Program-made: the position numbers and the translations under genes
In this document: positions 1 through 17,498 of the stretch, one piece after another
Layout of the letters: each line of letters opens with the position of its first letter
How positions within the stretch are numbered: the stretch's first letter is position 1
Notes under the pieces: model-generated
Database searches by the model: none
Told to the model about the DNA's origin: nothing
The model's input: the letters and a program-made list of their open reading frames with translations, nothing else
Origin: an uncultured Opitutales bacterium
GTDB taxonomy: Bacteria; Verrucomicrobiota; Verrucomicrobiia; Opitutales; Intestinicryptomonadaceae
Direction of reading: 5' to 3'
NCBI GenBank assembly: GCA_944389195.1
Contig: CALXLM010000020.1
Location: forward strand, 10,328-74,327
DNA: 64,000 nt

Positions 1-1059
1 TTTTAGGCTTTCCGCAACTATAAACGGGCGCGAAACCGTCGAAACGGAAACCGGAGCCCCCGGAAGCGGAGACAAACCTACGCCCGGCATGGCGATTTGA
101 GCGTCGATAAGCGCAAGCCCTATATTTGTTTTTAACGACGGGCTTTCCGAAACCGCAACCGCAACGCCTACCTCCCTCGCGCCATCAAACAAAGCGCAGC
201 CGACTTCCAACTTCCCGCTGGACATTATTCCCGTAAGGCGCCTCTTCAAGCCGGACTCCCTTTTCGAAAGAATCGCCTCCGATCCAGAAAACGACTCTTT
301 TTCAAAATCCGCCATCCACTGAAGTCCGAGCTCAAGCGGGCATCCCGCCCGAACGCCCTCCTTATAAACATTGAAAAAGTTGCCCTCCATTCTGGCGATT
401 TCATGGGCGCCGAATCCGCAAACGCGGCCGCCTACGCCGCCGAGAGCGGCTTCTATTTTTTCGCAAAGAGAATCCGCAACCTCAGACGGGGCGAGGAATT
501 GGTATCCAAATTCTCCCGTCCTTCCGTTCCGCATCAGAAAAACGCAGGCCCCTTCAAAATCGTACTTTTCCATTGAAAGGAAAGAAAGGTTCAAAATGTC
601 CGAACCGAAAACCTCACGAACGACTTTCCACGCCAGGGGACCATCGACGGAAAGCAGCACCCGCGAGCCTGAAAGATCCGCCGAAGCCCCCGCCGCAAGT
701 TCAAGCGCGGCCGAGCCGTCAATTTGCTCGGACACGGCCACTATTTTATCGTCTGCGTTTCCCACAAATACCTCCGCCACAATCCGGCCGGCCCTATTTG
801 CGAGAAACGTGTCTATTACTTTCCCGTACCTGAGTTTCAAAATGTTGGCGGCAAGCTTTGAATCCAAAAATTCCGCGCCGTCCGCCTCGTCAAACTCAAA
901 TACGCCGGAAAAAGAAAAATCGCAAAGCGCGGCTGTGTTGCGTATGGCAAAAAGCTCGCCCGCAACGTCCCCGAAACTTTCCACGCACTCCGCTCCGCAA
1001 AGCGATCCGAATTTCGCGCCCCGTGCCGCCCATCTGCTGCGTAATGTCAATTCGCGCAT
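1..1059 (-). CDS. GcvT/aminomethyltransferase-like folate-binding protein (3' end runs just off the window)
   Basis: Not in the ORF track. Manual minus-strand translation from ATG 1059 is open to base 1: MRELTLRSRW...AALCDFSFSG...RTGEFGYQF...ARMEGNF...PLELGLQWMADFEKESFSGSEAI...VSRPF, matching GcvT motifs. Start overlaps the stop of the upstream ACP. Confidence 0.8.
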   Translation of the reverse strand, partial: MRELTLRSRWAARGAKFGSLCGAECVESFGDVAGELFAIRNTAALCDFSFSGVFEFDEADGAEFLDSKLAANILKLRYGKVIDTFLANRAGRIVAEVFVGNADDKIVAVSEQIDGSAALELAAGASADLSGSRVLLSVDGPLAWKVVREVFGSDILNLSFLSMEKYDFEGACVFLMRNGRTGEFGYQFLAPSEVADSLCEKIEAALGGVGGRVCGFGAHEIARMEGNFFNVYKEGVRAGCPLELGLQWMADFEKESFSGSEAILSKRESGLKRRLTGIMSSGKLEVGCALFDGAREVGVAVAVSESPSLKTNIGLALIDAQIAMPGVGLSPLPGAPVSVSTVSRPFIVAESLK

Positions 1060-1337
1060 TGTTTGTCCTGTTGCTGAATGATATAGTCCACAAGTGTGTT
1101 GAGAGACCTTAGGGCATGCATGCCGTTTTGCGGCATCTTTACCGAAAAATTGTTTTCCACGCACAGCACGATTTCGAGAATATCGAGAGAATCGAGCCCG
1201 AGGCCCGATCCGATGAGAGGGATATCGTCAGATATGTCATCGGGTTTGTAGGGTATGTCGAGACTGCTTATGAGCCTCTCCTTCAACTTAAGGCAAATTT
1301 CCCTTCTTTTTTGAAGTCGGATAGTGTCGATTGGCAT
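1047..1337 (-). CDS. Acyl carrier protein
   Basis: GLGLDSLDILEIV phosphopantetheine motif; 96 aa from MPIDTIR (start trimmed from track ORF 1047-1487). Confidence 0.88.
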   Translation of the reverse strand: MPIDTIRLQKRREICLKLKERLISSLDIPYKPDDISDDIPLIGSGLGLDSLDILEIVLCVENNFSVKMPQNGMHALRSLNTLVDYIIQQQDKQCAN

Positions 1338-1442
1338 TTTATTCAAATATAATTGTAATGATTCTATATTCTTGCAAGATTTCAAAAGCGTAAAAAAATC
1401 GCATAGCACAATGTTATAAAAAAAGGAACTTTTCAAGCGCAA

Positions 1443-2162
1443 ATGAACGGCATAAAAATATGCGTCGCCATTCCGACCTACAACCATTCGGAACGCCTGC
1501 AGGAAATAATAGACACGCTTCCGCCCAAAATGTCCGCAATTGTGGTGGACGACGGGTCCTTTCCGCCCATATCGCTGAAACCGGGAAGCGCCGACATACT
1601 GCGGTTCGAAAAAAACGCAGGCAAGGCGGAAGCGCTAAAAGCCGCCTTCAGACTTGCCCAAAGCCGCGGATTTACCCACGCCATCACAATCGACGCCGAC
1701 GGGCAGCATCCGCCTTCCATGGTTCCCGATTTTGCCGCGGCAGCCGAAAAGTTTCCCGAATGCCTGATTCTCGGAGTGCGCGACTTCGACAATTCTGCGG
1801 CCCCCCCCGCAAGAAAATACATGAATAAATTTTCCAACTTTTGGTTTAGGGCCGAAACCGGAATAAAGCTGCGCGACACCCAGTGCGGATACAGATGCTA
1901 TCCGCTTGAACGCATTTCGCGCCTAAAACTGGATTTCGGCGGATTCGTATTCGAGGCCGAGCTGCTTGTAAAAGCCGCATGGGCGGGAATCGGCATCAGG
2001 GAAATTCCCATACCTGCCATATACGATAAGGCCTCGCTCGCGGGATCGCGCTATAAGCCCATCGCGGACACCGCAAAATTCGCCGCAATGAACGCGAAGC
2101 TGTTTTTTGCGTCTCTGCTTTTAACCCCGAAAAAGCTCAAGAAATCTGCCATAAAGGAATGA
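1443..2162 (+). CDS. Glycosyltransferase family 2
   Basis: IPTYN, VVDDGS, TIDADGQH and DTQCGYR motifs. Confidence 0.9.
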   Translation: MNGIKICVAIPTYNHSERLQEIIDTLPPKMSAIVVDDGSFPPISLKPGSADILRFEKNAGKAEALKAAFRLAQSRGFTHAITIDADGQHPPSMVPDFAAAAEKFPECLILGVRDFDNSAAPPARKYMNKFSNFWFRAETGIKLRDTQCGYRCYPLERISRLKLDFGGFVFEAELLVKAAWAGIGIREIPIPAIYDKASLAGSRYKPIADTAKFAAMNAKLFFASLLLTPKKLKKSAIKE

Positions 2163-4549
2163 ACTTTGCAGGGAAAGCCGTGGAATTTGTTTTCAAGCGC
2201 CGCAAGTCGGTTGCGGCAGCGGCTTTTTTGTTTTTATGCGCCGCGGCAGCGGCAATATGTTCGGCGGATTTTAACGCAAACGTTTACGATATCCTTCCGG
2301 TTTCCGACTCCACCCTGACGGCGCATATGAGAGTCTCAGAAAAGTTAAAGCAGTCGAATACTTTGTACTTTAACGTGTCGGGCGAAAATGCGGAAGCGGC
2401 GTGCGAAGCCCTCGCAAAGGAAGTGGGAAAACTGCCCGGAATTGCCTCTATATCCGGAAGTCCTGACGGATTCGACTACGCGTCGTTTATCAGCGGCGCC
2501 CTGACCGTGCTTCCTGAAATTTTTTCGCGCGACGACGAGATGGCCGCCAAGGAAAAGATCTCCTATGAAGCCTTGCGCGCCAGAATGGCGGATTTTAAGA
2601 GGAGGCTTTCCGGATTGGGCTCATACGGCGCCGCGGAAGCGCTCTCGAGCGACCCGCTTGGCCTGTCTTCAATTTTCTACGACAAATTGAAGGCCGCCTA
2701 CGGAGATTTCGAATCGTCCGCCTACGCCAGCGGGATAGTATCAGACAGTTCGGGAAAAAATTTTCTCGTCGCGGCCGAAGGCTCTTTCGATTCGTCCGAT
2801 TCCGATAAAAGCGCAGTGCTCATGCGGGCGGTGGACAAAGCCGTGGCGGGCATAACCAAAGAGTATCCCGGCGCAAAAATCTCCGTGGCCGGAGGCTACA
2901 GGATATCCGCCGAAAACGCCGCGATAGCCGCAAGGGATTCGGCATTGTGCCTAACAGCAACCGTCGCGTTCGTGGCGGCGCTGTGCTTTGTGGCGTTTTC
3001 GTCGCGCGTATTCGCGTCGATGGCGCTTCTGCCTCCGCTCTTCGGAACGGCGGCGGCGTTCTGCGCAATATCCGCCCTGTTCGGTTCGGTATCTACAATA
3101 GCGGTCGGATTCGCATCGGTGGCGGTAGGCGTCGGCATCGACTACGCCGTACACATATTGTACAGGCTCGACGGCGCCGGCAAAGCGGAGCTTGGCTTCG
3201 CCTCAAAAACGGCGTCCGAATTGGCGCTTCCCGTGGCGATAACGTCGGGAACGACCGCCATCGCCTTTGCGATTATAGGGCTGTACGGAAGTTCCGGATT
3301 TTCCCAGCTTGGGATTTTCGGAGCCGTGGGGGTTCTATTTTCGGCGGCAATAAGCGTGTTTGTCCTCCCGGCGGCGGCGGTGGGACTCGGCTCGAAAAAA
3401 CGGAAACAAAGGCCTTTCGACAAATTGGCGGGCGCCGTGGCGGCTTGCGCCAGCAGCCGCAGCGCCGCAGCCGCGGTTGCCGCTTTGTGCGCGCTATCGG
3501 TTCCGTTCGCATTGCAAGTAAGATTCAACGGAGATCTCTCGGCGCTCAGCGCCCTCGGCAAGCAGGCGAAAGCTGATGATGCCACGCTCAAAAACGTTTG
3601 GGGGGGCGCCCTATCCAAAACATTCGTATTTGTCGAAGCCGATACCCCAGACGGCGCAAAAGAGAAATGCGCAAAAATCGAAAGATGGCTTAAACAAAGG
3701 CGCGGCGCATCGGTTTGCCCTCTCTCTCCCCTGCTTCCAGACTCGAAGACGCTCCGCCAAAATTCCGAAAGATGGAAAAGTTTCTGGACCCGCGAGCGCA
3801 TCGAAGGCGCAAAAGAGGCGGCAGAAAAAGCTGCGCGCGACGAAGGCATAAATCCGGCGGCGCTGTCATTTAGAGCCCTCGAAATTCAGCCCGAAACGGT
3901 GCCGAAAGAAAAACGCATCGTTTCCGAAGCCTTAAAAAAGCGATTTTGGCAAGACGCCGGCGGGTCTGCCGCGGCGGTATTCGTAAAACTTGCCGACGGA
4001 ACGGATAAGCGCGCTTTTGCCGAAGACTTGGAAAAGTTCGACAGTTCCGCCCACTACATAGACGTAGGCTATCTTAGCGGGCACATCGCCTCGGAAACCT
4101 TTAAATGGCTTATTAAATTTGCGCTCGCCGCGTTCTGCGCTGCGGCGGCTTACATATGCGCGCTGACGCGCAGCGCCTCGGTGGCGGGGGCTGTTCTGGC
4201 GCCCGTGCTTATCGGCCTTTTATGGGCTTTCGGAATATTCGGGGCTTTCGGCGTGGAGATAAACGCCGTCAACGTCGTGTTTGTGATATTCGCCGTATGC
4301 ATAGCGCAGGACTACGCAGTCTTCATGATTTTTTCCAAATCCAAAGCCGAGGATAAATCGTCGTCCACAGCCGCCGTTCTCATATCGGCTATTACTACGG
4401 TTTTCGCGTTCGGAACGCTCGGCTTTGCGGAGCACCCCGTCTTAAGGAGCCTCGGGTTGTCCGCGTCTATATCGATATTTTCAATACTGTGCGCATGCCT
4501 TGCATTTTCGGGCGCGCCGGCAAGACGGACTGGAGGAGGCGTTGGATAA
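2159..4549 (+). CDS. MMPL/RND-family exporter (PKS-cluster associated)
   Basis: Two hydrophobic TM bundles with large soluble loops; GVGIDYAVH and IAQDYAVF motifs. Confidence 0.85.
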   Translation: MNFAGKAVEFVFKRRKSVAAAAFLFLCAAAAAICSADFNANVYDILPVSDSTLTAHMRVSEKLKQSNTLYFNVSGENAEAACEALAKEVGKLPGIASISGSPDGFDYASFISGALTVLPEIFSRDDEMAAKEKISYEALRARMADFKRRLSGLGSYGAAEALSSDPLGLSSIFYDKLKAAYGDFESSAYASGIVSDSSGKNFLVAAEGSFDSSDSDKSAVLMRAVDKAVAGITKEYPGAKISVAGGYRISAENAAIAARDSALCLTATVAFVAALCFVAFSSRVFASMALLPPLFGTAAAFCAISALFGSVSTIAVGFASVAVGVGIDYAVHILYRLDGAGKAELGFASKTASELALPVAITSGTTAIAFAIIGLYGSSGFSQLGIFGAVGVLFSAAISVFVLPAAAVGLGSKKRKQRPFDKLAGAVAACASSRSAAAAVAALCALSVPFALQVRFNGDLSALSALGKQAKADDATLKNVWGGALSKTFVFVEADTPDGAKEKCAKIERWLKQRRGASVCPLSPLLPDSKTLRQNSERWKSFWTRERIEGAKEAAEKAARDEGINPAALSFRALEIQPETVPKEKRIVSEALKKRFWQDAGGSAAAVFVKLADGTDKRAFAEDLEKFDSSAHYIDVGYLSGHIASETFKWLIKFALAAFCAAAAYICALTRSASVAGAVLAPVLIGLLWAFGIFGAFGVEINAVNVVFVIFAVCIAQDYAVFMIFSKSKAEDKSSSTAAVLISAITTVFAFGTLGFAEHPVLRSLGLSASISIFSILCACLAFSGAPARRTGGGVG

Positions 4550-5402
4550 GGCGCGCTGGACAGGAAAAAGCTACGGGGGATACTGGGGGAACTGGTGCTT
4601 TCTGCAGCTGTTAAAATTGGGCGCCCTGCCGGCTTACGGGCTCCTCCTGTTTGTGGCAGCATATTTTGTCGTGTTTAGAAGAAAGGCGTGCGAGGGAGGG
4701 GTTAAATTTCTTTCGAAAGTCGAGGGGCGCAAAATAGGCGCGATATCGCTTGAAACGTACAGGCTCGCGTTTTCATTTGGAGTCTGCCTGCTCGACAGGG
4801 CGATGGCGTTTTCGGGAAGCAAAAAAATAAAAATCGACGATGAATGCGAAAAAACCATAAAGCCGATTCTTGAAAGCGGGCGTGGAGCGGTGGTCGTGAC
4901 GGCGCATGTCGGCGGTTGGGAAATGGCGGGAGCCGAGCTTCTAAAATACGGCAGAAGGGTTTTTATGCCGGGAACCGACGGCGAGGATCCGCGCATACGG
5001 AAATTGTCGGAGTCGGCGCGAAAAACAAAAAAAATCAGCGTGAACGTTTCCGGCGGGGCACTGTCGAACATAGAGGCGTACTCCGTTTTAAAAGGCGGGG
5101 GGATAGTCGCCATGCACGCCGACAGATACGCGGGCGGAAGATTCGCAAGAGTAAAGTTTCTCGGGGAGGAAGTGGCGGCGCCGACCGCGGCGTATTGGCT
5201 TGCAAAAGCCGCGGGGGTTCCCGTCGTTCAAACGGTATGTTTCAGGGGAAAGCTGTTCCACTACTCAGCCCGCGCGTTCCCACCTATGGACGCCAACCTG
5301 AAAACGCCAAATGAATGCGCCTCAGAATTTATGTCCAACCTTGAAAGCGCAATAAAAGCGCACAAATACCAATGGTTTAATTTTTATGATTTCTGGAAAT
5401 GA
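4542..5402 (+). CDS. Lysophospholipid/lipid A-type acyltransferase
   Basis: N-terminal WTGKSYGG, AHVGGWE (HxxxxE), MHADR, WFNFYDFW C-terminus; likely TTG start 4542 after a GGAGG RBS. Confidence 0.85.
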   Translation: MDKARWTGKSYGGYWGNWCFLQLLKLGALPAYGLLLFVAAYFVVFRRKACEGGVKFLSKVEGRKIGAISLETYRLAFSFGVCLLDRAMAFSGSKKIKIDDECEKTIKPILESGRGAVVVTAHVGGWEMAGAELLKYGRRVFMPGTDGEDPRIRKLSESARKTKKISVNVSGGALSNIEAYSVLKGGGIVAMHADRYAGGRFARVKFLGEEVAAPTAAYWLAKAAGVPVVQTVCFRGKLFHYSARAFPPMDANLKTPNECASEFMSNLESAIKAHKYQWFNFYDFWK

Positions 5403-5458: not shown

Positions 5459-5722
5459 ATGGATAAAGAAACGCTTACAGCAGATCTCAAACGCAAAATA
5501 ATCTCCGCGCTCAACCTGCCCGAAGTATCGCCCTCGGATATCGCCGACGACACCGAGCTGTTCGGGGAATCCGGGCTCGGTCTCGACTCCGTGGACGCTC
5601 TCGAACTTGTCGTGATGGTGGAGCGCGAGTACGGAGTCGTCATAAGCGAAAGCTCCGACGCAAAAAAGATTTTTGCGTCTGTCGGAACACTTGCCGACTA
5701 TTTGATATCAAACCGGAAATGA
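5459..5722 (+). CDS. Acyl carrier protein
   Basis: GLGLDSVDALEL motif, 87 aa, acidic. Confidence 0.92.
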   Translation: MDKETLTADLKRKIISALNLPEVSPSDIADDTELFGESGLGLDSVDALELVVMVEREYGVVISESSDAKKIFASVGTLADYLISNRK

Positions 5723-7836
5723 GCCGCGCGCCCGCAATAGTTTCGGCGGGCCTGTGTTCGTGCGCGGGCGCGTCGGTCGAATCTGCATGGAACGCAGTCG
5801 CATGCGGGACCGACACGCTCGAGAGGGTCCGCCTTTTCGAAAGCCCCAAACATTCGGAAAGGTTCGCGGGATTCGCAAAAATAGCGGCTCTCCCAAGGGG
5901 AATGTCAAGATGCGCCGCCATGATGTTTTCGGCCATAGACGAAGCCGCGCGCGGTTTCGATTTGTCGGCCATAAAAGGCGACAGGATAAGCGTCTATGTC
6001 GGAACGAGCATAGGGGGGATTTTCGAGACGGAAAACATGCTCGAAAGAAACGCCTCCACCGGAATCGAAAAGCTGTCGGAACTGGCGTGCTACGAATGTT
6101 CCACCCTGTCCGAACTTGCGGCAAAAAGGACTGGCGCTTTGGGCGAATGCGCGGCTTTTTCAACCGCCTGCTCAAGTTCGTCAATCGCCATTGCCGAGGC
6201 GTGCAACGCAATCGAACAGGGACGTTGCGACGCCGCCGTGGTGTGCGGTGTAGACGCGCTTTCGCGCATTACACTGAACGGTTTCGGATCCCTTCTTTTG
6301 CTTTCCCGAGGAAAATGCGCGCCATTCGACAAAAACCGCGACGGCATAAATTTGGGGGAGGCCGCGGGCGCCCTGTTTCTGTGCGCGGAGAGCAAACTCG
6401 GCAAAGCAAAGCCGCTCGCATACATAACAGGCTGGGCGCGCACCTGCGACGCTCACCATGCAACGTCTCCCGACCCGGACGGCAAAGACGCCGCCCGCGC
6501 GATAAGGGAGGCGCTTTCGATGGCCTCGGTGCCGGCAGAATCGGTATCATACTACAACGCCCACGGAACCGCCACAACGGGAAACGACAGCGCGGAGGCT
6601 GCGGCGCTGCGCGCAGTGTTCGGACAAAATATCCCCCCCGTATCGTCAATAAAAAGGATTTTCGGGCATACGCTCGGGGCGAGCGGAATTGTGAACGCCA
6701 TAATCTCCTTGGAATCGGAGCGCAGGTCAATTCTGCCTCCAAATGCCGGCTTTAAAACGTTCGACGAATCTCTCGGGATAGAGCCCGTCACATGCCCGAA
6801 GGGGGCAAAAATAGAAAACTCCATTTCCGTATCGCTGGGATTCGGAGGGAACAACGGAGCAATCGTTATTTCCCGCGGCCATGCCAAATGCAAGGCGCCG
6901 CCGAGAAACGCAAGAACATTTATCTACGGATGCGGAATAGTCGGGCGCGGAGGAACGGTTGACGATTCCCATCTCATGCCCGACGAACCCCCGCTAAAAA
7001 AGCGCAAATTGGCGCACCTGCAAAAAATGGGCGCCCATGCCGCCCGCGCCGCAATAAAAATGGCGCAGCCCGACGCGGAAAAGGAGCGCACAGCGGTATG
7101 TTGGGGAACGGGGCTTGGAATGACGGCTCAAACCCGCATGTTTGTCGAAAACATATTTGCCAAGCGCGAGGCCGAACCTATGCCTACGGCTTTTACGAAC
7201 TCCGTGCACAACGCCGTGCCGTCGGCCATAGCCATACGGGAGGGATTTAGGGGGCTGAACAGCGCGGTGTCCGCAAAAGAGATATCTTTCGAATGCGCCT
7301 TGGCGCAGGCTGTAAGGGAAATAAATTCCGGTGCGGCGGACGCGGCTGTCGTTTGCGCCGGCGACGAATACTGCCAACTTGCGGCCGATTTCCTCAAAAC
7401 CTCGAAGTATTCCGAAAACGACGGCTCAAAGTTGTCGGACTTTGCCGCGGCATATTTCATCGGGATTGACGGGGCTGCAAAATCAAAGCCTATTGCGGAA
7501 ATTTTGGACGTGGAAATATGCAGGCTTCCCGAAAGCGACGCCGTGGAGTTTAAGGCTATTTCAAATATGCTTGCATCAAACGGGCTGGCGGCCTCCGACG
7601 TGTCAAAATGGCTGTCTCTTAAGCCTTGCAACGCCTACCAGCGCAGGCGCCTCAAATCGCTTGCGGATTCATTGGGAATCGAACGCTTCGAACATGCGGC
7701 GGAAAAATACGGAGACAACTATTGCGCATCGGCGGCCTGCATGTTCGAATACGCCGAATACAGCGGTAAAATCTGCCTTCAATATTCGGTTTCGTCCACA
7801 TCGATGCGCGCCGCAACCCTGTTTAAAATACTATGA
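5719..7836 (+). CDS. Beta-ketoacyl synthase fused to a chain-length-factor-like domain
   Basis: Active KS triad TACSSS / NAHGTAT / GHTLGA, then a C-terminal KS-like half with PTAFTNSVHNA and no catalytic triad. Confidence 0.85.
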   Translation: MSRAPAIVSAGLCSCAGASVESAWNAVACGTDTLERVRLFESPKHSERFAGFAKIAALPRGMSRCAAMMFSAIDEAARGFDLSAIKGDRISVYVGTSIGGIFETENMLERNASTGIEKLSELACYECSTLSELAAKRTGALGECAAFSTACSSSSIAIAEACNAIEQGRCDAAVVCGVDALSRITLNGFGSLLLLSRGKCAPFDKNRDGINLGEAAGALFLCAESKLGKAKPLAYITGWARTCDAHHATSPDPDGKDAARAIREALSMASVPAESVSYYNAHGTATTGNDSAEAAALRAVFGQNIPPVSSIKRIFGHTLGASGIVNAIISLESERRSILPPNAGFKTFDESLGIEPVTCPKGAKIENSISVSLGFGGNNGAIVISRGHAKCKAPPRNARTFIYGCGIVGRGGTVDDSHLMPDEPPLKKRKLAHLQKMGAHAARAAIKMAQPDAEKERTAVCWGTGLGMTAQTRMFVENIFAKREAEPMPTAFTNSVHNAVPSAIAIREGFRGLNSAVSAKEISFECALAQAVREINSGAADAAVVCAGDEYCQLAADFLKTSKYSENDGSKLSDFAAAYFIGIDGAAKSKPIAEILDVEICRLPESDAVEFKAISNMLASNGLAASDVSKWLSLKPCNAYQRRRLKSLADSLGIERFEHAAEKYGDNYCASAACMFEYAEYSGKICLQYSVSSTSMRAATLFKIL

Positions 7837-8402
7837 AAACTTTTATCTTGCTTTTGGCTGCCGCATCGGTCCAGGCGTTATATGCCGACTCATTTCTGAT
7901 TGAAATGGAAAAAATAAAATCCGTTTCGATATTGACAGAACCTGTCAGGGGAAAATGCGCACTGGCCGCGGACTCAGAAGGCAGGGCGCGTTGGCAGATA
8001 TTCTCTCCGTACGAATCAATAACCATTTCGAACGAACGCGGGCTCTTCCAATTCGAAAAAAACGCCGGCGAATGGAAAACCATAAAAAATCCTTTCGCGG
8101 ATAAAATCAAAAAAGTAATAGGCGACATAAAAAACATAGTCTCGGGCAAATTCTCGAATGAATACGAGGTAGAGAGATCCGGCAATTCGGCGACGCTGCT
8201 GCCCAAAGACCCTGCGGCAAGAAAATTTATATCGAAAATAACCGTAAAATTCGCCGGCGGCTCGGACATTCCAGAATCGATAGAAATCGAAGAGGCCGGA
8301 GGCGACAAAACAGTCCTTAAAACGCTCCGCGCGCAAAAAGACCCGGCAGGCTTGTCTGACGCATTCGACGAAAAAAATTTCCTAAAATTCCCTCCCAAAT
8401 GA
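7833..8402 (+). CDS. LolA-like outer-membrane lipoprotein carrier protein
   Basis: Signal peptide, RWQIFSPYESITI, TLLPK, IEIEEAGGDKT; typical position in APE-type clusters. Confidence 0.7.
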   Translation: MKTFILLLAAASVQALYADSFLIEMEKIKSVSILTEPVRGKCALAADSEGRARWQIFSPYESITISNERGLFQFEKNAGEWKTIKNPFADKIKKVIGDIKNIVSGKFSNEYEVERSGNSATLLPKDPAARKFISKITVKFAGGSDIPESIEIEEAGGDKTVLKTLRAQKDPAGLSDAFDEKNFLKFPPK

Positions 8403-8932
8403 AAAGAAAAATCGCATTGGCAGCCGCAATATTGTTCGCCGCCGCGCTTTCGCTGGCGCTTCCGGACGGCGGATACGCGCTGCGCGGAAAATCGTACATG
8501 CAGAGGGGCGTGCTCAGCGCGGGCGGCGCGGACATGCCAATAACCGTTTATGTGCTGAGCGGCGATTCCTCCATAAGCATGGCAATCGAAGGCGAAGCGG
8601 GAGTCCTCGCAAAAGTTGCCGTCTCCCCGCTGGACGGCAGGGAGCTCTCGTGTTCAGGAAGCACCGCGCTCCCAGAAAAAATCGTTAGAAAATTTGCCCT
8701 GCGAGATCTGAGGGCTGCCATGGGACTCGGAGGATTTGAAAACGCGGAGGCAGTCTTTGTGGAAAAATACGGTGGACGCACAATATCGGCTTCATCGGAC
8801 GAATACAAAATTGAATTTTCAGAGTACAAAAAAATCGGAGAAACGGAAATCCCCACAAGGCTGAAAATATCGTGTGAAAGCTATTCGCTCTCGCTCGATT
8901 TTATTTCCCCGCTGAATGCGGGGAAAAAATAA
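8399..8932 (+). CDS. Secreted hypothetical protein (LolB/DUF3261-like by position)
   Basis: Signal peptide, beta-rich, translationally coupled after the LolA-like gene. Confidence 0.45.
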   Translation: MKRKIALAAAILFAAALSLALPDGGYALRGKSYMQRGVLSAGGADMPITVYVLSGDSSISMAIEGEAGVLAKVAVSPLDGRELSCSGSTALPEKIVRKFALRDLRAAMGLGGFENAEAVFVEKYGGRTISASSDEYKIEFSEYKKIGETEIPTRLKISCESYSLSLDFISPLNAGKK

Positions 8933-8961: not shown

Positions 8962-11406
8962 ATGAACGAACAAAAAAATTTTTCCCGAATAAAAACGGAA
9001 GCTGCAGAGGCCGCCATAACCGGCATAGGAATCATATCTCCCATAGGCTGCAATCCCGACGCCGTCTTGCGCTCGCTCAGAAGCAAAAAAGACGGCATAA
9101 GAAAAGCCACAAAAATAGATACCTCAAAATTCTTGTCCCAACTATGCGGAGAGGTTGCGGATTTCGACTGCTCTTCAAACATGACACCCGAAGAGCTTGA
9201 TACATTTTCTGATCCGTACATTAGACTGGCATTAAACGCCGCCCGCATGGCGGCAAAAGACGCCGGACTGGCCGCCTTCCCGGAAAAAACGGCTATGGTT
9301 CTGGCGACATGCAACGGAGGGCTCAACTCCGGAGAGGCGGAATATGTAAGGGAATATATAAACCCGAACGCCGTTTTCGACGTTTCCACCCTTGCGCAAT
9401 ACGAATACTACGCGCTGTGCAAAGCGGCGGCAAACGCAATGAAAATAGGAGGCGAATGCTGGATGGTAAACACGGCGTGCTCCGGCTCGACCGCGGCGAT
9501 AGGGCTTGCCGAATCGCTCATAGGGTCGGGGAAAGCCGACTGCGTTCTCGTGGGTGGCGCCGACGCGGTGGCACTGTCGAACTTCGCTGGTTTCAACGCG
9601 ATTAAAGTTTTGTCCCCCGAAAAAATCGCCCCGTTCTCTATGCCCGTAGGAATGAACATCGGCGAGGGCGCGGCTTTTTGGATTCTGGAAAGCCGCAAGC
9701 ATGCGGAATCAAGAGGCGCAAAAATATACGGCAAAGTAATCGGGCACGCCACGACAGGAGACGCCCACCACCCCACCCAGCCGGACCCGAGAGGCGACGG
9801 GGCTTTCAGAACCATGCGCAACGCCGCCGCAAACGCAGGAGTATCAGTCGAACAAATAGGATGCATCAATGCCCACGGTTCCGGCACGGCCGCAAACGAC
9901 AAAGCCGAATCAAAGGGAATAACAAAATTTCTGGCCGGAACGGCAGTTCCGGCAACCTCAACAAAATCGTACACCGGCCATTGCATGGGCGCAACCGGCA
10001 TAATAGAGGCCACATGCCAGCTGCTGTCAATGAACGACGGTTTTATTCCGCCGACACTGCGCTATTCCGGTCCGCGCCCGGGATGCGAAACCGAAGTGGC
10101 AAGCGGAGACGGAATAGAAAAAAAATACGACTGTTTTTTGTCGGCAAACTACGCCTTCGCAGGCAACAATGCGGCCATAATAGTCGCAAAAGACGCGTTT
10201 TCAAATTATGACAGGCCCCATTCGCGGACAGATATCCGCCCGGCAATAAGCGGGTGTTCCGCAATTTCACCGCTCGGCATAAATATGGAGGAAAACTTGG
10301 CTGCGCTATTGAAGGGAGCATCGGGAATATCAAAAATTACTCGTTTCCCGTCAGACAGAAGCGCGGGCATGGTTTCTATTCCCAATTTGCGCTCCCTCGA
10401 CAGGCGCATAGACTTCGGCGGAATGAACCTGATTAGCACTTATGCGACAATCGCTGCAAAAGGCGCGCTCGACTCCGCGCTGCTTCAGGTAAGAAGAGGC
10501 AACTGCGAAGACGTCGGACTTGCCGTATCCACATGCAGGGGCTCTTCCGAAAGCGCCCACATGGAAGCCGTATTTTCAACCGCCGACATGCGCGGAGACA
10601 TAGGATGTTTCTCAAACTCGACCGCAAACTCAACCGCCGGCTGGGTCTCGAAAGCCCTCGAAATTAAGGGAGCCAATATAACGCTCACGTCCGGGCCCAA
10701 CTCAGGCCTGCAAACTATCGGATACGCCGCCAGACTCATACGCGAAGGCGCCGCAAAAAGCGTCGTGGCAGTAGCCGCCGACGAACTCTACAAACGGGAA
10801 ATGGACGCTTACGAAAAGTTCGGGCTTTTGCACGAGGGAAAAAACGAGGAAAACTTCAGGCTCGACTATTCGTCCTACGGGAAAAGCGTGCTCGGCGAAG
10901 GAGCTGCGGCGGCGGTCGTCGAGGATATCTCTGAGGCGAAGCTCCGTGGGGCGAAAATCCTCGGGGAAATTTTGGCATATTCGTCGGCTTCAAGCATGTG
11001 CGGATTCAACGAACCAAATCTCGAATGCGGCGCACTACTTCGCGCCTCGGAAAACGCGCTCTCAGAGGCGGGCGTAAGCACAAAAGATATTGAGCTTATT
11101 CTGTGGAGCCCGCGGGGTTGCGCCCAAGACTCCACGGCAATATTCGCGCGCGACAAAATGTTTCCCGGAACGCCCATGGTGGCGACTTCACTAAACACGG
11201 GATACCTCGAAACGGCATCTTCAATGCACGTTTTGGCGTGCGCCCTCAGCGCCCTCGCAGACGGGAAAACCCTATGGTGTCAAAAAACCGGAGTCCGCGC
11301 TTTGGACGCAACGCCTTTGCCGGGCAATCCAAAGCTTATTTTGTGCCTCGCATCAAGCAACGCCGGAAACAACTACGCCCTTCTGGTTGGAAGAGGCTCC
11401 ATGTAA
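8962..11406 (+). CDS. Beta-ketoacyl synthase (FabF-like) fused to a full-length inactive KS/CLF domain
   Basis: First domain NTACSGS / NAHGSGT / GHCMGA; second domain repeats the fold (AISGCSAISPLG) but the Cys and His positions are lost (LTSGPNSG, WSPRG, NTGYLE). Confidence 0.88.
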   Translation: MNEQKNFSRIKTEAAEAAITGIGIISPIGCNPDAVLRSLRSKKDGIRKATKIDTSKFLSQLCGEVADFDCSSNMTPEELDTFSDPYIRLALNAARMAAKDAGLAAFPEKTAMVLATCNGGLNSGEAEYVREYINPNAVFDVSTLAQYEYYALCKAAANAMKIGGECWMVNTACSGSTAAIGLAESLIGSGKADCVLVGGADAVALSNFAGFNAIKVLSPEKIAPFSMPVGMNIGEGAAFWILESRKHAESRGAKIYGKVIGHATTGDAHHPTQPDPRGDGAFRTMRNAAANAGVSVEQIGCINAHGSGTAANDKAESKGITKFLAGTAVPATSTKSYTGHCMGATGIIEATCQLLSMNDGFIPPTLRYSGPRPGCETEVASGDGIEKKYDCFLSANYAFAGNNAAIIVAKDAFSNYDRPHSRTDIRPAISGCSAISPLGINMEENLAALLKGASGISKITRFPSDRSAGMVSIPNLRSLDRRIDFGGMNLISTYATIAAKGALDSALLQVRRGNCEDVGLAVSTCRGSSESAHMEAVFSTADMRGDIGCFSNSTANSTAGWVSKALEIKGANITLTSGPNSGLQTIGYAARLIREGAAKSVVAVAADELYKREMDAYEKFGLLHEGKNEENFRLDYSSYGKSVLGEGAAAAVVEDISEAKLRGAKILGEILAYSSASSMCGFNEPNLECGALLRASENALSEAGVSTKDIELILWSPRGCAQDSTAIFARDKMFPGTPMVATSLNTGYLETASSMHVLACALSALADGKTLWCQKTGVRALDATPLPGNPKLILCLASSNAGNNYALLVGRGSM

Positions 11407-11571
11407 AACGGAGCCGACACCGGCATGGAAAAGCCGCGCAAAGACAGCCGGGCTCCCTAAACCCGCGCGTTCCGTCGCACTGCTCCCCCGCAACGCTCCG
11501 CGCTTTGCCGAAGCTAAACTTCACGCCTTCCGCAACGCCAATCCGCAAATCCGAAAAGCGGCGCATTACGG

Positions 11572-11599
11572 TTTTTCCTCCGGCATTTTTCCTCCGGCA
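11572..11599. repeat. Perfect 14-bp tandem repeat (tttttcctccggca x2)
   Basis: Seen directly in the intergenic region upstream of the glycosidase gene. Confidence 0.8.
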
Positions 11600-11650
11600 G
11601 CGACATGCCGGGCCGCCGACTATGGCGTCTGACATAAAAAAACATTCGGA

Positions 11651-11678
11651 TTGACAACGGCACGTCTGGTCATACATT
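11651..11678 (+). promoter_or_regulatory. Putative sigma70 promoter
   Basis: TTGACA-16 nt-TACATT, 12 nt upstream of ATG 11691. Confidence 0.45.
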
Positions 11679-11690
11679 GAATCAACGTTT

Positions 11691-13853
11691 ATGCAATCGA
11701 TTCAATTTAAATGTGTCCTCGCCGCCGTTTGCCTTTTTACGGTTTCCTCACATGCTGAAATAGACAGAAAAGCGCTTGCCGAGCGCCATAATGTCAACAT
11801 TTCAAAAACCGACCAAAATTCCCCGGCGCAAGTAGGAAACGGCGAATTTGCATTTAATTTCGACATAACCGGTTTGCAAACATTTGTGCCTTTCAATACG
11901 CTATCGCGTTGGGCGTGGCATTCGTCGCCAATGCCGCCGTTTATGAAGTCCACCGACGACTTTATGGGAACGCCTTTTAAAGTAAAAGGTAAAACGGTTT
12001 ATCTTTCCACGCCGATTGTGCCGAATATAAATATCGCCGAATGGAGGCGCGATTTCCCAGACTTTAAATTCACAAAAGAACAGGCCGAAATCGCAAAATG
12101 GATGGCAAAAAACCCGCATTCTCTAAACCTCGGAAGGATAGGATTCGAAATGTTTGCCGAAGACGGTTCTCCAGCGAAAGAGTCGGACATAACCGACCCG
12201 CAACAAACGCTTAACATATACACCGGAATCGCCGAAAGCAGCTTCTCTTTTAAAAAAGAAAAAGTTTCGGTCACCACCCTTTGCCGGCAGTCAGACGACA
12301 CCGTCGCGTTCGAAATATCGTCTCCGCTTCTAAAAAGCGGAAAGCTAAAAGTGTTTTTCGAATTTCCGTATGCCGACGACAGTTATATGGCGTTTTTTGT
12401 CGGCAAGTGGGATATGCCGAAAGCCCATTCGTCCAAACTTTCCCTCTCTGAAAACAGCGCGCTTATAGAGCGCACATTGGACGGCGACAAATACTTCGCC
12501 CTTATAAAATGGGAGGGGGAAGCGGAATTTTCCGGAGACGAAAACAACGCGCACAAATTCAGGCTTGCGCCAAAATGCGATAGCATCCGCCTTTTCGTAA
12601 ACTTCTCAAAAGAAAAACCCGCTGCAAAAAACTTTTCCTTCGAAGAATCGCTAAGGCAAAGCCGGAACGCATGGGAGAAATACTGGCTGGAAGGGGCGGC
12701 TATCGACTTCGGCCAAACAGCCGATCCGCGCGCGGCGGAACTTGAAAGGCGAATGGTTTTGTCGCAATACCTGATGCGCATAAACGCGGGAGGGTCGCTT
12801 CCGCCGCAGGAAAGCGGGCTGCTGTCGAACAGCTGGTACGGGAAATTTCACTACGAAATGATATGGTGGCATACCGCGCATTTCGTGCTCTGGGGGAAAG
12901 GCGACATCGCCCAAAGACAGTGGAAAATCTTTAGCGACAGGCTTGAAGAAGCCAAGGCGCGCGCAAAACGCGAGGGATACAAGGGCGCAAAATGGGACAA
13001 ATCGAGCGGAAATATGCCTTTTGAATGGCCACATATAATCCACGCCACGCTTTTGTGGCAACAGCCGCATCCGATATATTTCGCGGAACTCGAATACAGG
13101 AGAAATCCGTCCGAATCGGTGTTGAAAAAATGGAGCAGCATAGTTTTTGAAACGGCGGATTTTCTGGCTTCTTATCCGTGTTTCAACGGGCAAAAAAAAC
13201 GCTACGAGCTTCTGCCTCCAATGACGCTGGTTTCCGAAAACACCAATCAACTTCACACTAAAAATCCGACCTTTGAATTGGCGTATTGGCGCTACGGCTT
13301 GCGTACCGCCCTTAAATGGAAGGAACGCCTCGGGTTGGAAAAGCCGAAAGAATGGTTGGATGTCCTTGAAAACCTGGCCCCGGCGCCCGTCGAGAACGGC
13401 GTGTATGTCACATATGAAGGCATACCCCAAATGTGGACTAAATATAATTTCGAACACCCCGCGCTTATCGGCGTTTACGGCATGCTTCCGGGTGACGGCA
13501 TAAATGTGGAAACAGCAAAAGCCACGCTCTCGAAAGTGAAAAAGCTTTGGAATTTCGACCGCATATGGGGTTGGGATTTCCCCATGATGGCCATGTCCGC
13601 AGCGCGCCTGGGAGACCGCGAATTGGCGGTCGATATGCTTTTGCATAAATCTAAAAATTTCAGATTTTCCGCGCACGGCGTCGCGAGTGGCGGCCCGTGT
13701 CCGTATTTCCCGTCAAACGGGGGGCTTCTCGCCGCTCTGGCCATGATGGCCGGCGGCTGGGACGGCGCCAACGAGGAAACTTTCGACGCAGAAAGCCTCG
13801 CATTTCCCAAAGAATGGAAAGTCAAAGCCGAAGGCTTTATACCCTACGAATAG
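11691..13853 (+). CDS. Secreted six-hairpin glycoside hydrolase (GH65/GH95-like)
   Basis: Signal peptide; IDRKAL..RHN, VGNGEFAFNFDITGLQT, WYGKFHYEM..WH, WGWDFP, FPSNGGLL motifs. Confidence 0.7.
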   Translation: MQSIQFKCVLAAVCLFTVSSHAEIDRKALAERHNVNISKTDQNSPAQVGNGEFAFNFDITGLQTFVPFNTLSRWAWHSSPMPPFMKSTDDFMGTPFKVKGKTVYLSTPIVPNINIAEWRRDFPDFKFTKEQAEIAKWMAKNPHSLNLGRIGFEMFAEDGSPAKESDITDPQQTLNIYTGIAESSFSFKKEKVSVTTLCRQSDDTVAFEISSPLLKSGKLKVFFEFPYADDSYMAFFVGKWDMPKAHSSKLSLSENSALIERTLDGDKYFALIKWEGEAEFSGDENNAHKFRLAPKCDSIRLFVNFSKEKPAAKNFSFEESLRQSRNAWEKYWLEGAAIDFGQTADPRAAELERRMVLSQYLMRINAGGSLPPQESGLLSNSWYGKFHYEMIWWHTAHFVLWGKGDIAQRQWKIFSDRLEEAKARAKREGYKGAKWDKSSGNMPFEWPHIIHATLLWQQPHPIYFAELEYRRNPSESVLKKWSSIVFETADFLASYPCFNGQKKRYELLPPMTLVSENTNQLHTKNPTFELAYWRYGLRTALKWKERLGLEKPKEWLDVLENLAPAPVENGVYVTYEGIPQMWTKYNFEHPALIGVYGMLPGDGINVETAKATLSKVKKLWNFDRIWGWDFPMMAMSAARLGDRELAVDMLLHKSKNFRFSAHGVASGGPCPYFPSNGGLLAALAMMAGGWDGANEETFDAESLAFPKEWKVKAEGFIPYE

Positions 13854-14702: not shown

Positions 14703-17498
14703 ATGAGAAAAACACCGATTATAGCGGCGCTGTTTGCACTTTGCAGCGCCTATGCTGATGTAATATCGATAAGGGAAGCAGCGAATTTCGGATTGGCCGA
14801 CAACGGAATCGCGGGAGACGGCAAGGGGGGGTTTACCGACGACGGCGTAAATCTCCCCGACATCGCCTATAAAGACGGCATAAACACTGTTTACGGGGAA
14901 AAATTCGATCTTATCGACCCGCAAAAAAACGGCGGGCGGGCCGTGCTTACGTTCGAATGCAAAAAGTCGAAAACCGGTTTGCGCGAAGTCACGCTCGACC
15001 TCTCCGGCAAGAAAATTAAGGGTGAGTCTCTGAACCTTCTGCACACATCGACAAAATCGCCCGACCTCAGATATACAAAAATAGGCAAAATAGAAATAAA
15101 CTACGCCGACGGCAAAAGAAAAACAATCGTACTGGACTACGCGATCGACGTAATGAACGGCCTCTACCCGCAAGAAAGGGCTAACGCAAAAATATGGTCC
15201 CCATCAAAAAAGTTCGCTCCGGCGTATTTCTTTAGCAGGTTCATGATAGAGCCGAAAGAAATCAAAAGCATTAAGCTTTCCACAATGGACATCGCAACTT
15301 GGGTGGTCGCAGGCCTGTCGGTTTCCGAGAAATTCCCGTCGTCAAAGCCGTCTCCCGCAGACTGGGTGGAGGTAGATATAGACGACATTGCCATAAAAGA
15401 GGGTACGGCTTTGGACGTATCGAAAGATTTCGACTCCGACCCCGCCGGAAAATATGGAAGGGTGATAGTGTCAAAGAACGGCAAATTCGCATTTGAGAAA
15501 AAGCCGAATTCAAGACAGAAATTCCACGGCACTGTTTGGTACATGTCAGGAGAACTCGGAAAGACAATCGACGAAACTAAAGCAAACCTGAGGCTTTTGT
15601 GCAAAATCGCCAAGCGCCAGGGATACAACCTCCTAAGGTTCCACACCACCGATTTCCTTTGTTCTCCCGACCCCGCAAAAGTACTGGAGGGATTCGACCT
15701 TTACGACTACCTAATATCGGAAGCGCAAAAGAACGGCATTTACCTCAACCTATTGATAGGAAACAACGTGTTCCTAAACAAGCCCAACGCGATGGACGAA
15801 CGCTACGCCCTTAAGCTGAAAATGATAATGGGCGACGAAAAAACGCGCCAAACCTGGAAAAACCACGCAAAGAAACAGCTCGAACACATAAACCCGTACA
15901 CGGGCCTGGCATGGAAAGACGATCCCACTTTCATGGGAATGGAATTCTGGAACGAAATGGATCTTTTTATGTACGTTTCAAATGTAGATGTAAAAACAAT
16001 CGATTTTGTAAACTCCGAATTTTCAAAATATCTGAAAGAAAAATACGGCACCGTCGAAAATCTAAATTCCTCCGGGAAACTTAACAACAAAAACTACAAA
16101 GATTTCGGAGAAATAGATTTTATAAAAGAGCGAATGTCTTCCGAATGGGCTAATTTGCTTCAGAAGAAGAATCGTGAATTCCGCGAATACTGCGAAAGCA
16201 CCGTAAAAGACGAAATAGGATACAAGGGGTTGATATACCAATTCAACTGCAACCGCACGGTGAACATCGCCTATATGAGCGCCGAAATTGCCGACTACAT
16301 GGCTCTCAACGTATATTTTTCGCACCCCTCGGCCTTTATGAGGGAAAATTCCACCATTGTAAAGGGGAGTTCCCTTGCCGAACTTGCGCCCCATATGCGA
16401 GCCGGCATGAACCGAAAAGTATCGGGCCGACCGATATGCCTCACAGAATACAACCACTGCCATTGGAATAAGTTTAAACATGAAGGCGGCATAGTGTTCG
16501 GCGCATATTCGGCCCTTCAAGATTTCGACGGCATGGTGGTGCACTCGGACGGCGTCACCACGGGCAATAAGAAAAACAAATTCCTGCATCCTTTCGGAGT
16601 GTTCAATTCGCCCATATTCCGCGCGAACGAATTTATAACTTATTGCATGTTTAAGAGGGGCGACGTTAAAAAATCGAAAAGCCGCATCGAACTGTTCTTT
16701 CCAAAAGACTTTATTGAAAACAGCCCCGACATGATGAACTCGATTAACAACGACCAGTCTAAAATAGCGCTAATATCGGGCTTCTCCACCGCTTTTGAAG
16801 GCATGGCCAAACCAAGCGCGCTAAAAAGGGTCAAAATTAAAAAACCTACCCTTAGAATACTTCCCGTCGGTAGCGCGCTGACCGAATCGGCGCAAAACTT
16901 CTCCACAACTGGAGAAAATGTAGGTGACAAATTCGACCTCGACGCATTCGTGCAAAAGATGCGCTCCGAAGGCATCATAGGCAACGAGAATATCACCTCC
17001 CCTTCAGCCGGAATCTTCCAGTCAGATACGGGAGAAATATTTCTCGACTCCAAAAATGAGAGGATATCAGTAATAACTGAAAAAACCGAAGCAGTCGCAT
17101 TCAAACGCGGAATTGAAAAACTCGACGCGCTCAAGTCTGTGGCCTCCACAACTCCCTGTTCCGTGGCGGTATGCTCCATGGACGGCAACCCTATACGCAA
17201 AAGCAAAAGAATGGTGCTCGTCTACGCCACAGACAATATCAACGACAGCATGTGGCTTTCAAAAGACGAAACCATGCTGCTTAAAAACGCGGACAGAAAC
17301 GCCAAGATTCTTATCAGGCGCGGCAAACTGTCGGCTGAGCTCCAAGTAAATCCGGACGCCAAATTCAAGGTTTACGAGCTGAAATTCAACGGCGAGCGCA
17401 AGGCGGAAATACCTGCGGAAAACAAGAACGGAACCCTCGAAATAAAAATAGACAATTCGAAGAATCCGGCAACGTTCTTTGAAATAGCGGCAGAATAA
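14703..17498 (+). CDS. Secreted clan GH-A (GH5/GH42-like) glycoside hydrolase with N-terminal accessory module
   Basis: Signal peptide; LLRFH, NPYTGLAWKDDP, EFWNE (acid/base), LTEYNH (nucleophile), AYSALQDFDG. Confidence 0.7.
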   Translation: MRKTPIIAALFALCSAYADVISIREAANFGLADNGIAGDGKGGFTDDGVNLPDIAYKDGINTVYGEKFDLIDPQKNGGRAVLTFECKKSKTGLREVTLDLSGKKIKGESLNLLHTSTKSPDLRYTKIGKIEINYADGKRKTIVLDYAIDVMNGLYPQERANAKIWSPSKKFAPAYFFSRFMIEPKEIKSIKLSTMDIATWVVAGLSVSEKFPSSKPSPADWVEVDIDDIAIKEGTALDVSKDFDSDPAGKYGRVIVSKNGKFAFEKKPNSRQKFHGTVWYMSGELGKTIDETKANLRLLCKIAKRQGYNLLRFHTTDFLCSPDPAKVLEGFDLYDYLISEAQKNGIYLNLLIGNNVFLNKPNAMDERYALKLKMIMGDEKTRQTWKNHAKKQLEHINPYTGLAWKDDPTFMGMEFWNEMDLFMYVSNVDVKTIDFVNSEFSKYLKEKYGTVENLNSSGKLNNKNYKDFGEIDFIKERMSSEWANLLQKKNREFREYCESTVKDEIGYKGLIYQFNCNRTVNIAYMSAEIADYMALNVYFSHPSAFMRENSTIVKGSSLAELAPHMRAGMNRKVSGRPICLTEYNHCHWNKFKHEGGIVFGAYSALQDFDGMVVHSDGVTTGNKKNKFLHPFGVFNSPIFRANEFITYCMFKRGDVKKSKSRIELFFPKDFIENSPDMMNSINNDQSKIALISGFSTAFEGMAKPSALKRVKIKKPTLRILPVGSALTESAQNFSTTGENVGDKFDLDAFVQKMRSEGIIGNENITSPSAGIFQSDTGEIFLDSKNERISVITEKTEAVAFKRGIEKLDALKSVASTTPCSVAVCSMDGNPIRKSKRMVLVYATDNINDSMWLSKDETMLLKNADRNAKILIRRGKLSAELQVNPDAKFKVYELKFNGERKAEIPAENKNGTLEIKIDNSKNPATFFEIAAE

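Follow-up and report, generated by a model that had tools for sequence, protein, structure and literature searches.

A GcvT-like protein encoded at the left edge of a 64,000-nucleotide (nt) window from an uncultured Opitutales bacterium has most likely left glycine cleavage and is paired with an acyl carrier protein (ACP), here named ACP1. The window, by which the whole stretch of analysed DNA is meant, corresponds to positions 10328-74327 of contig C20 in a genome of 2.37 Mb that is 96% complete. The GcvT-like gene is translationally coupled to the ACP1 gene, here and in dozens of genomes of six phyla, and its product groups apart from true GcvT in a clade of its own. That it acts on or together with the phosphopantetheinyl-ACP is the best supported reading because the clade is separate, ACP and ketosynthase (KS) genes adjoin the gene, and seven natural fusions join its product to an ACP. 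With a probability of roughly 0.6, the protein is a folate-independent partner of the ACP1 arm in a type II fatty acid synthase/polyketide synthase (FAS/PKS)-like pathway, which would lead to an exported, probably glycosylated outer-membrane lipid.

The coupled genes and the gene that follows them are given below.

1047..1337, minus strand: ACP1, 96 amino acids (aa), from the ATG at 1337 to the TGA stop at 1049-1047; PF00550 (E 3e-07) and NCBIfam PRK09184.
1..1059, minus strand: GcvT-fold, CylF-like protein, 358 aa in full, from the ATG at 1059-1057 with AGGA upstream.
L002:9883-10305, left of the window: YbgC/4HBT-type thioesterase (TE), 140 aa, starting 4 nt after the GcvT-like gene.

The translation of ACP1 contains the sequence GLGLDSLD with the phosphopantetheine serine. 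The end of the ACP1 open reading frame (ORF) and the start of the GcvT-like ORF share 13 nt on the same strand. The last five codons and the stop of the GcvT-like gene (18 nt) lie beyond the left edge of the window at L002 10310-10327, and the full coding span is L002 11386..10313. The protein matches PF01571 with an E value of 3.5e-32 (about 112 bits) and PF08669 with 25 bits. It falls below the cut-offs for true GcvT, with 117 vs 300 bits for PRK00389 and 97 vs 236 bits for TIGR00528. No GcvH or GcvP gene was found near it, the neighbours being the ACP and thioesterase genes. Beyond the thioesterase lies an unrelated TolC/MFP/AcrB efflux operon that is convergent with the ACP1 operon. A second, canonical gcvT, followed directly by gcvH, is located at C17:35533-36922 in the same genome, and its product scores 270 bits to PF01571. 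The initial annotation of the window had described the overlapping ORFs, the absence of GcvH and GcvP from the vicinity and a non-canonical paralogue of the GcvT fold associated with an ACP and a KS/lipid cluster, all of which agree with the present results; the genes left of the window, to which it had pointed, are the thioesterase and the efflux operon.

The window protein is a member of a sizeable family. Searched against 5.8 billion proteins, it matched ~60 close clusters (39-64% identity, 253-498 bits), after which the next matches were true GcvTs at 28% identity and ~106 bits. With a profile, 249 proteins were retrieved at E <= 1e-30 from 1.84 billion representatives. The family signature is G(K/R)TGE(F/Y)GY(Q/M/L), which reads GRTGEFGYQ in the window protein. 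In a FastTree phylogeny of 198 sequences, whose deep branches are to be taken with caution, no locus with an ACP context falls within the canonical GcvT clade, which instead takes in the two loci lacking a nearby ACP (L050 and L052) alongside the genome's own GcvT. Among 401 evenly sampled Verrucomicrobiota genomes, three carry the GcvT-like gene; this patchy presence fits an accessory, mobile biosynthetic cluster.

Synteny was compared at 55 loci in species-representative genomes from Opitutales and other Verrucomicrobiota, Fibrobacterota, Myxococcota, Planctomycetota and Pseudomonadota, the closest of which are metagenome-assembled genomes (MAGs) of gut Opitutales. A same-strand ACP gene adjoins the GcvT-like gene in 51/55 loci. 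The interval from the ACP stop to the GcvT-like start ranges from a 37-nt overlap to a 4-nt gap in 43 of these 51, and the serine motif GxDS[LIV] is retained in 46 of the 51 adjacent ACPs. The larger negative offsets belong to distant members, in which the GcvT-like proteins lack the first ~30 residues. This arrangement lies far beyond chance, and the observation is statistically robust. Double ketosynthases of ~800 aa are constant companions that accompany the pair in every phylum examined. The other neighbours are ketoreductase (KR), FabD, TE, FabA-like dehydratase (DH) and phosphopantetheinyl transferase (PPTase) genes, with TE, KR and FabD occurring often.

The composition of the loci varies around this core. 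A Fibrobacterota locus comprises a B12-radical-SAM::KS gene (1253 aa), a KS gene (770 aa), ACP, GcvT-like, thioesterase, FabG and FabD genes, and a Pirellulaceae genome combines the ACP and GcvT-like genes with three large KS genes, a PPTase and a KR. The order in Polyangia and Pseudomonadota is KS, ACP, GcvT-like and KR, followed by a FabA-like DH or an acyltransferase. One Verrucomicrobia MAG shows a flavoprotein, an AMP-ligase, a chain-length factor (CLF), an AMP-ligase::ApeI-dehydratase, a KS, the ACP, the GcvT-like gene and a KR. The closest Opitutales relatives (L003, L006, L008 and L010, ~11330-12240) have the operon order ACP, GcvT-like, TE, KR; the operon of the source genome stops at the thioesterase and is missing the KR. 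The window and L002 yielded no KR, DH or PlsC-type gene linked to the cluster, and the best KR match in the source genome lies elsewhere, at 44% identity.

Several of these loci contain an unusual ketosynthase. A B12-binding radical-SAM domain is fused N-terminally to a double KS, giving a protein of ~1250 aa encoded directly upstream of the ACP/GcvT-like pair, at L025:3617-7375 of a Fibrobacter MAG. The same fusion is present at L023, L028, L030, L033, L038 and L053 and, within the first ~2 kb, at the Opitutales loci L003, L006, L010 and L011. In some of the closest Opitutales relatives, it stands in for KS2, the double ketosynthase of the window. We know of no described radical-SAM::KS fusion. 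The domain combination suggests that the chain undergoes C-methylation or C-C chemistry of an unusual kind.

Covalent fusions provide a second link between the GcvT-like protein and its carrier. Seven protein clusters consist of ACP::GcvT-like fusions, with the DS motif intact in 7/7 and a linker of 10-40 aa. Five of them (P0037, P0137, P0163, P0176 and P0182) match both PF00550 and PF01571, and P0193 and P0197 align likewise. An origin as artefacts or frameshifts is ruled out by the seven separate clusters, which are mutually <=50% identical and occupy at least five separate positions in the tree. In all seven fusions, the GcvT-like part lacks the N-terminal ~30 residues and the ACP takes their place. 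In the E. coli T-H complex, the N-terminal segment of GcvT reportedly contributes to the contact with the H protein. The fusion architecture would be consistent with docking of the ACP at the face equivalent to the H-protein site. A second type of fusion, P0305 (597 aa), joins the GcvT-like domain to a short-chain dehydrogenase/reductase (SDR)/ketoreductase and also ties the family to FAS/PKS enzymes.

Fusions of canonical-type GcvT domains were encountered as well. P0169 (685 aa), P0119 (762 aa), P0164 (920 aa) and P0195 (623 aa) are odd fusions unrelated to the ACP-linked clade. Their partners include a lysyl-phosphatidylglycerol-synthase transmembrane region and an AstE/AspA-like domain, and P0119 and P0164 each contain a second set of GcvT-domain matches within one protein.

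The folate site of GcvT has been extensively altered in the window protein. Human GcvT Met56, Asp101, Tyr197 and Glu204 contact folate and are invariant wherever the fold binds it, Arg233 is specific to GcvT, and Asp101 is the catalytic base; in GcvT, the lipoyl-lysine arm of the H protein enters a tunnel that ends at the folate pocket (PMC9551070). These positions were mapped through the conserved motifs SHM, IDD, GYTGEDGxE and GARD, with the spacing checked on the 1yx2 alignment. All five residues differ in the window protein (S51, E96, R180, Q187 and H219 vs human M56, D101, Y197, E204 and R233), and the set M-D-Y-E-R is kept in E. coli GcvT and in the source genome's own GcvT. HMMER alignments to 1yx2 and 1woo place the segment GRIVAEV opposite GG(I/T)(I/V)DDL of GcvT, so that the Asp pair is lost, as the initial annotation had read from GGIIDDL. 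Across 101 core members of the family, the Glu204 position is never Glu (Q in 70, L in 15, M in 5, S in 5 and others in 6), and the Tyr197 position is Lys in 84 and Arg in 15. The Arg233 position holds His in 62, Leu in 25 and Arg in one, and the Met56 position is variable. The replacement of these contacts makes canonical pterin binding unlikely. A conserved basic residue has been gained in the former pocket, where an acid is usually retained.

A working aminomethyltransferase that acts with an H protein and supplies ammonia or one-carbon (C1) units locally has been predicted for CylF, the corresponding protein of the Streptococcus agalactiae cyl operon (PMC6985545), and the source genome does encode GcvH. 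This role is nevertheless close to negligible in probability for the window protein: a canonical gcvT-gcvH pair is already present elsewhere in the genome, the five folate-contact residues differ, and the fixed partner is an ACP, sometimes covalently fused, and not an H protein. A housekeeping GcvT was rejected on the same two grounds, namely the true gcvT-gcvH pair elsewhere and the loss of the contact residues.

The overall shape of the protein is that of GcvT. An AlphaFold2 (AF2) model built with the family alignment (pLDDT 93.7, pTM 0.91) contains the three-domain GcvT fold with its C-terminal barrel. Foldseek comparison of the model gave TM scores of 0.88 to T. maritima GcvT (1WOS), 0.87 to human GcvT (1WSR), 0.84 to the E. 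coli T protein of the T-H complex (3A8I), 0.84 to DmdA (3TFH) and about 0.7 to LigM. The scores to YgfZ (1VLY/1NRK) and Iba57 are 0.62-0.63 and 0.53-0.56, a ranking which indicates that the predicted shape is GcvT-like, not YgfZ-like. Relative to GcvT itself (PF01571/PF08669; 1WOO, 1YX2, 3A8I), the window protein shares the three-domain fold at TM 0.84-0.88 and the TGE motif; it differs in its identity of 24-28%, its separate clade and its residues S, E, R, Q and H at the folate contacts. GcvT recognises a swinging-arm carrier protein, GcvH, and the partner of the window protein is an ACP. In the terms set by the initial annotation, the family clusters with neither true GcvT nor YgfZ, by tree and TM score, and its homologues remain linked to ACP and KS genes, with an ACP adjacent in 51/55 loci and a double KS beside the pair.

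YgfZ and Iba57 also provide a precedent for a GcvT fold that has lost canonical folate binding and kept a remnant of the arm tunnel; both are folate-independent (PMC9551070). A YgfZ/Iba57-like Fe-S maintenance factor could in principle serve a radical-SAM enzyme of the pathway, and the KS neighbour carries a B12-binding radical-SAM domain in Fibrobacterota and several Opitutales. This explanation is very improbable. The family has no invariant Cys, the hallmark of YgfZ with its KGC[YF]xGQE-type motif (the best column has Cys in 57/101), and its TM scores to YgfZ and Iba57 are far below those to GcvT. No radical-SAM::KS gene or other radical-SAM partner gene was found in the source genome, and many clusters are without one. 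The genomic context is also different from that of YgfZ/Iba57, and the ACP fusions would be left unaccounted for. The YgfZ-type reading was rejected on the missing invariant Cys and the poorer structural match, and the Fe-S/radical support proposed in the initial annotation finds no backing here.

The closest described counterpart of the window protein appears to be CylF, which would make the window protein its Gram-negative equivalent; the two are likened by description and not by alignment. CylF is an aminomethyltransferase homologue universal in cyl operons, which direct the granadaene/beta-haemolysin pigment, and its role has been proposed to be ammonia supply for ornithine synthesis (PMC6985545); Whidbey et al. 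suggested a methylated granadaene derivative. Like the window protein, CylF is a GcvT homologue within a FAS-II-like cluster (ACP, KR, DH, the large KS CylI, glycosyltransferase, exporter and PPTase), and its gene directly precedes the large KS gene cylI. However, CylF is described only in Gram-positive bacteria, acpC of group B Streptococcus is not adjacent to cylF, and the published predictions of ammonia supply and methylation leave the ACP out. No Firmicutes CylF was recovered in three homology searches, in which the seeds from the wider clade and from E. coli led only to Polyangia/Gemmatimonadaceae and to Enterobacterales, and tblastn against plasmids returned only canonical GcvTs at ~25% identity. 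In the window protein, an established fold occurs in variant form with a carrier partner new to it, as CylF had foreshadowed.

A related gene is present in E. coli O157:H7 Sakai. ECs_1284-1290 encode a PPTase, a KR, a DH, an ACP, an 'aminomethyltransferase' and two KS proteins, the first of 852 aa; ABC transporter genes come next, in an island spanning ECs_1284-1298. The ACP (ECs_1287), the GcvT-like protein (ECs_1288) and the 852-aa KS (ECs_1289) are encoded in the same order as in the family, and the positions of Tyr197, Glu204 and Arg233 are occupied by K, M and Q in ECs_1288. ECs_1288 scores 129 bits against the family profile vs 56 bits for the true GcvT of E. coli. It differs from the window protein in its low identity (23%, E 4e-23) and in keeping Asp at the catalytic position, and its cluster has an ABC exporter, not one of the MMPL type. 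Enterobacter, Klebsiella oxytoca and Kosakonia commonly carry relatives of ECs_1288 under the annotation 'aminomethyltransferase family protein'. A two-partner-secretion pair annotated as 'hemagglutinin/hemolysin-related protein' and 'hemolysin activator-related protein' immediately precedes the Sakai cyl-like FAS cluster (L064, 1350076-1370405), which is probably O-island 47, and the SpLE1 element comes shortly after the cluster.

Several observations weigh against a folate-independent ACP partner. An acid occupies the Asp101 position in 83/101 core members (Glu in 56, Asp in 27) and in the majority of the wider clade, and the Glu of the TGE motif never varies, which leaves room for pterin binding in an altered mode. 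In the cyl system, folate antagonists raise pigment output (PMC4315905), a hint of a folate link for CylF. The likeness to CylF is itself one of description. The AF2 model of the P0037 fusion has two confident domains, a pTM of 0.72 and a disordered linker, and supports no docking pose. Gene linkage and fusion speak for a partnership and not for a mechanism. The first of these points would be accommodated by a folate-dependent C1 enzyme that transfers a methylene, methyl or aminomethyl group and adds a C1 or amino group to the ACP1 cargo or removes one from it. Its fold is at TM 0.88 to true GcvT and close to the folate-bound domains of DMGDH and sarcosine oxidase, and it would agree with the methylated granadaene of Whidbey et al. 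and with the change in cyl pigment under folate-pathway inhibitors. Such an enzyme is nonetheless unlikely, in view of the residues described above: four contacts are invariant wherever the fold binds folate, yet here Glu204 is never Glu, Tyr197 has become Lys or Arg, Met56 is variable and Arg233 is lost, and the catalytic position itself is Ala, Ser or Thr in 18/101 core members. The suggestion of the initial annotation that the protein acts on a phosphopantetheinyl-ACP cargo is therefore upheld for the partnership, by synteny and the seven fusions, and not for the chemistries it proposed. Folate-based one-carbon or amino-group transfer has become less likely with the additional replacement of the Glu204, Tyr197 and Arg233 equivalents.

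For the folate-independent ACP partner, the following course may be envisaged. The tunnel that takes the lipoyl-lysine arm in GcvT would now admit the 4'-phosphopantetheine arm of ACP1, and the former pterin pocket would hold the thioester-bound cargo instead of folate. Binding of the ACP arm is inferred here from the protein sequences and their context. The pocket would be lined by the near-invariant Lys/Arg (R180), a Gln or hydrophobic residue (Q187) and what is usually an acid (E96). The GcvT-like protein may carry out a folate-independent step on an ACP1-bound starter or intermediate, or it may hold the cargo and hand it to the double ketosynthase, after which the YbgC-type thioesterase encoded downstream might release or proof-read it. 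A more specific proposal, which we advance tentatively and regard as somewhat doubtful, is that the GcvT fold has been re-tooled as a type II PKS/FAS component, in which the lipoyl tunnel would receive the arm of the cognate ACP and the conserved Lys/acid pair would catalyse a folate-independent reaction on the tethered chain. Candidate reactions would be Schiff-base-assisted decarboxylative priming, double-bond handling and chain-length gating.

The label 'aminomethyltransferase' is attached everywhere to GcvT-fold genes that sit in fatty-acid-like clusters, and CylF is explained by glycine cleavage or methylation. ACP coupling, repeated fusions and the loss of folate residues point to a carrier-protein partner instead. 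This hypothesis would cover CylF, a conserved component of the haemolytic-pigment pathway of group B Streptococcus, the E. coli O157 island gene with its many Enterobacterales equivalents, and uncharacterised lipid clusters of gut Verrucomicrobia, Fibrobacterota, Myxococcota and Planctomycetota. If it is true, a fold that recognises swinging arms has switched from lipoyl to phosphopantetheinyl carriers. If the protein is indeed a re-tooled PKS/FAS component, a single explanation would cover both the E. coli O157 island gene and CylF, a puzzle for 25 years. In the collection of papers searched, no link of GcvT or aminomethyltransferase to aryl-polyene (APE) clusters or to ACP/ketosynthase clusters other than cyl was found. 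The step is uncharacterised in the literature, as the initial annotation had anticipated for a tailoring step; the E. coli O157 gene and CylF, which belong to similar clusters, are partial precedents.

Across a short spacer from ACP1, a divergent lipid cluster extends into the window.

1338..1442, no strand: AT-rich divergent spacer, 105 bp, between ACP1 (minus) and the family-2 glycosyltransferase (GT2) gene (plus).
1443..2162, plus strand: GT2, PF00535 (E 1e-13), the first gene of the divergent cluster.
2159..4549, plus strand: MMPL/HpnN-like RND lipid exporter, PF03176 and TIGR03480.
4500..5402, plus strand: LpxL/lysophospholipid-type acyltransferase, PF03279 (E 6e-17).
5459..5722, plus strand: ACP2 of the aryl-polyene-cluster type, PF00550; PRK09184 at 74 bits, above the cut-off.
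5719..7836, plus strand: KS1, 705 aa, a KS and a KS-like (chain-length-factor-like) domain; PF00109/PF02801, PF13723 and PRK09185.
7833-8402, plus strand: LolA-like carrier, PF03548 (weak, E 2e-4).
8399-8932, plus strand: 177-aa protein, for which no family match was found.
8962..11406, plus strand: KS2, an 814-aa double ketosynthase (a KS, then a second KS-like domain), with PF00109/PF02801 in the N-terminal half.

The C-terminal half of KS2 matches FabF structures (E 3e-20) and also PF00109. The position of the GT2 gene is kept in nearly all Opitutales and Verrucomicrobiota loci. The spacer presumably serves as a bidirectional promoter region; it contains one sigma-70-like match per strand, a weak signal whose number is not above that in shuffles. 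Likewise, promoter and terminator matches across the operon were no more frequent than in shuffled sequences.

The divergent cluster resembles APE clusters in its GT2, MMPL protein, LpxL-type acyltransferase, PRK09184 ACP, PRK09185 KS with a CLF-like partner and LolA-like protein. One Verrucomicrobia relative additionally has AMP-ligase and ApeI-like dehydratase genes. Unlike APE clusters, the window has no aryl-starter genes, KR or DH. To our knowledge, the described APE clusters are without a GcvT-like gene.

Past the lipid cluster, two large ORFs at 11691-13853 (720 aa) and 14703-17498 (931 aa) have no significant Pfam match and show faint glycoside-hydrolase-like matches with E values of 0.002-0.013.

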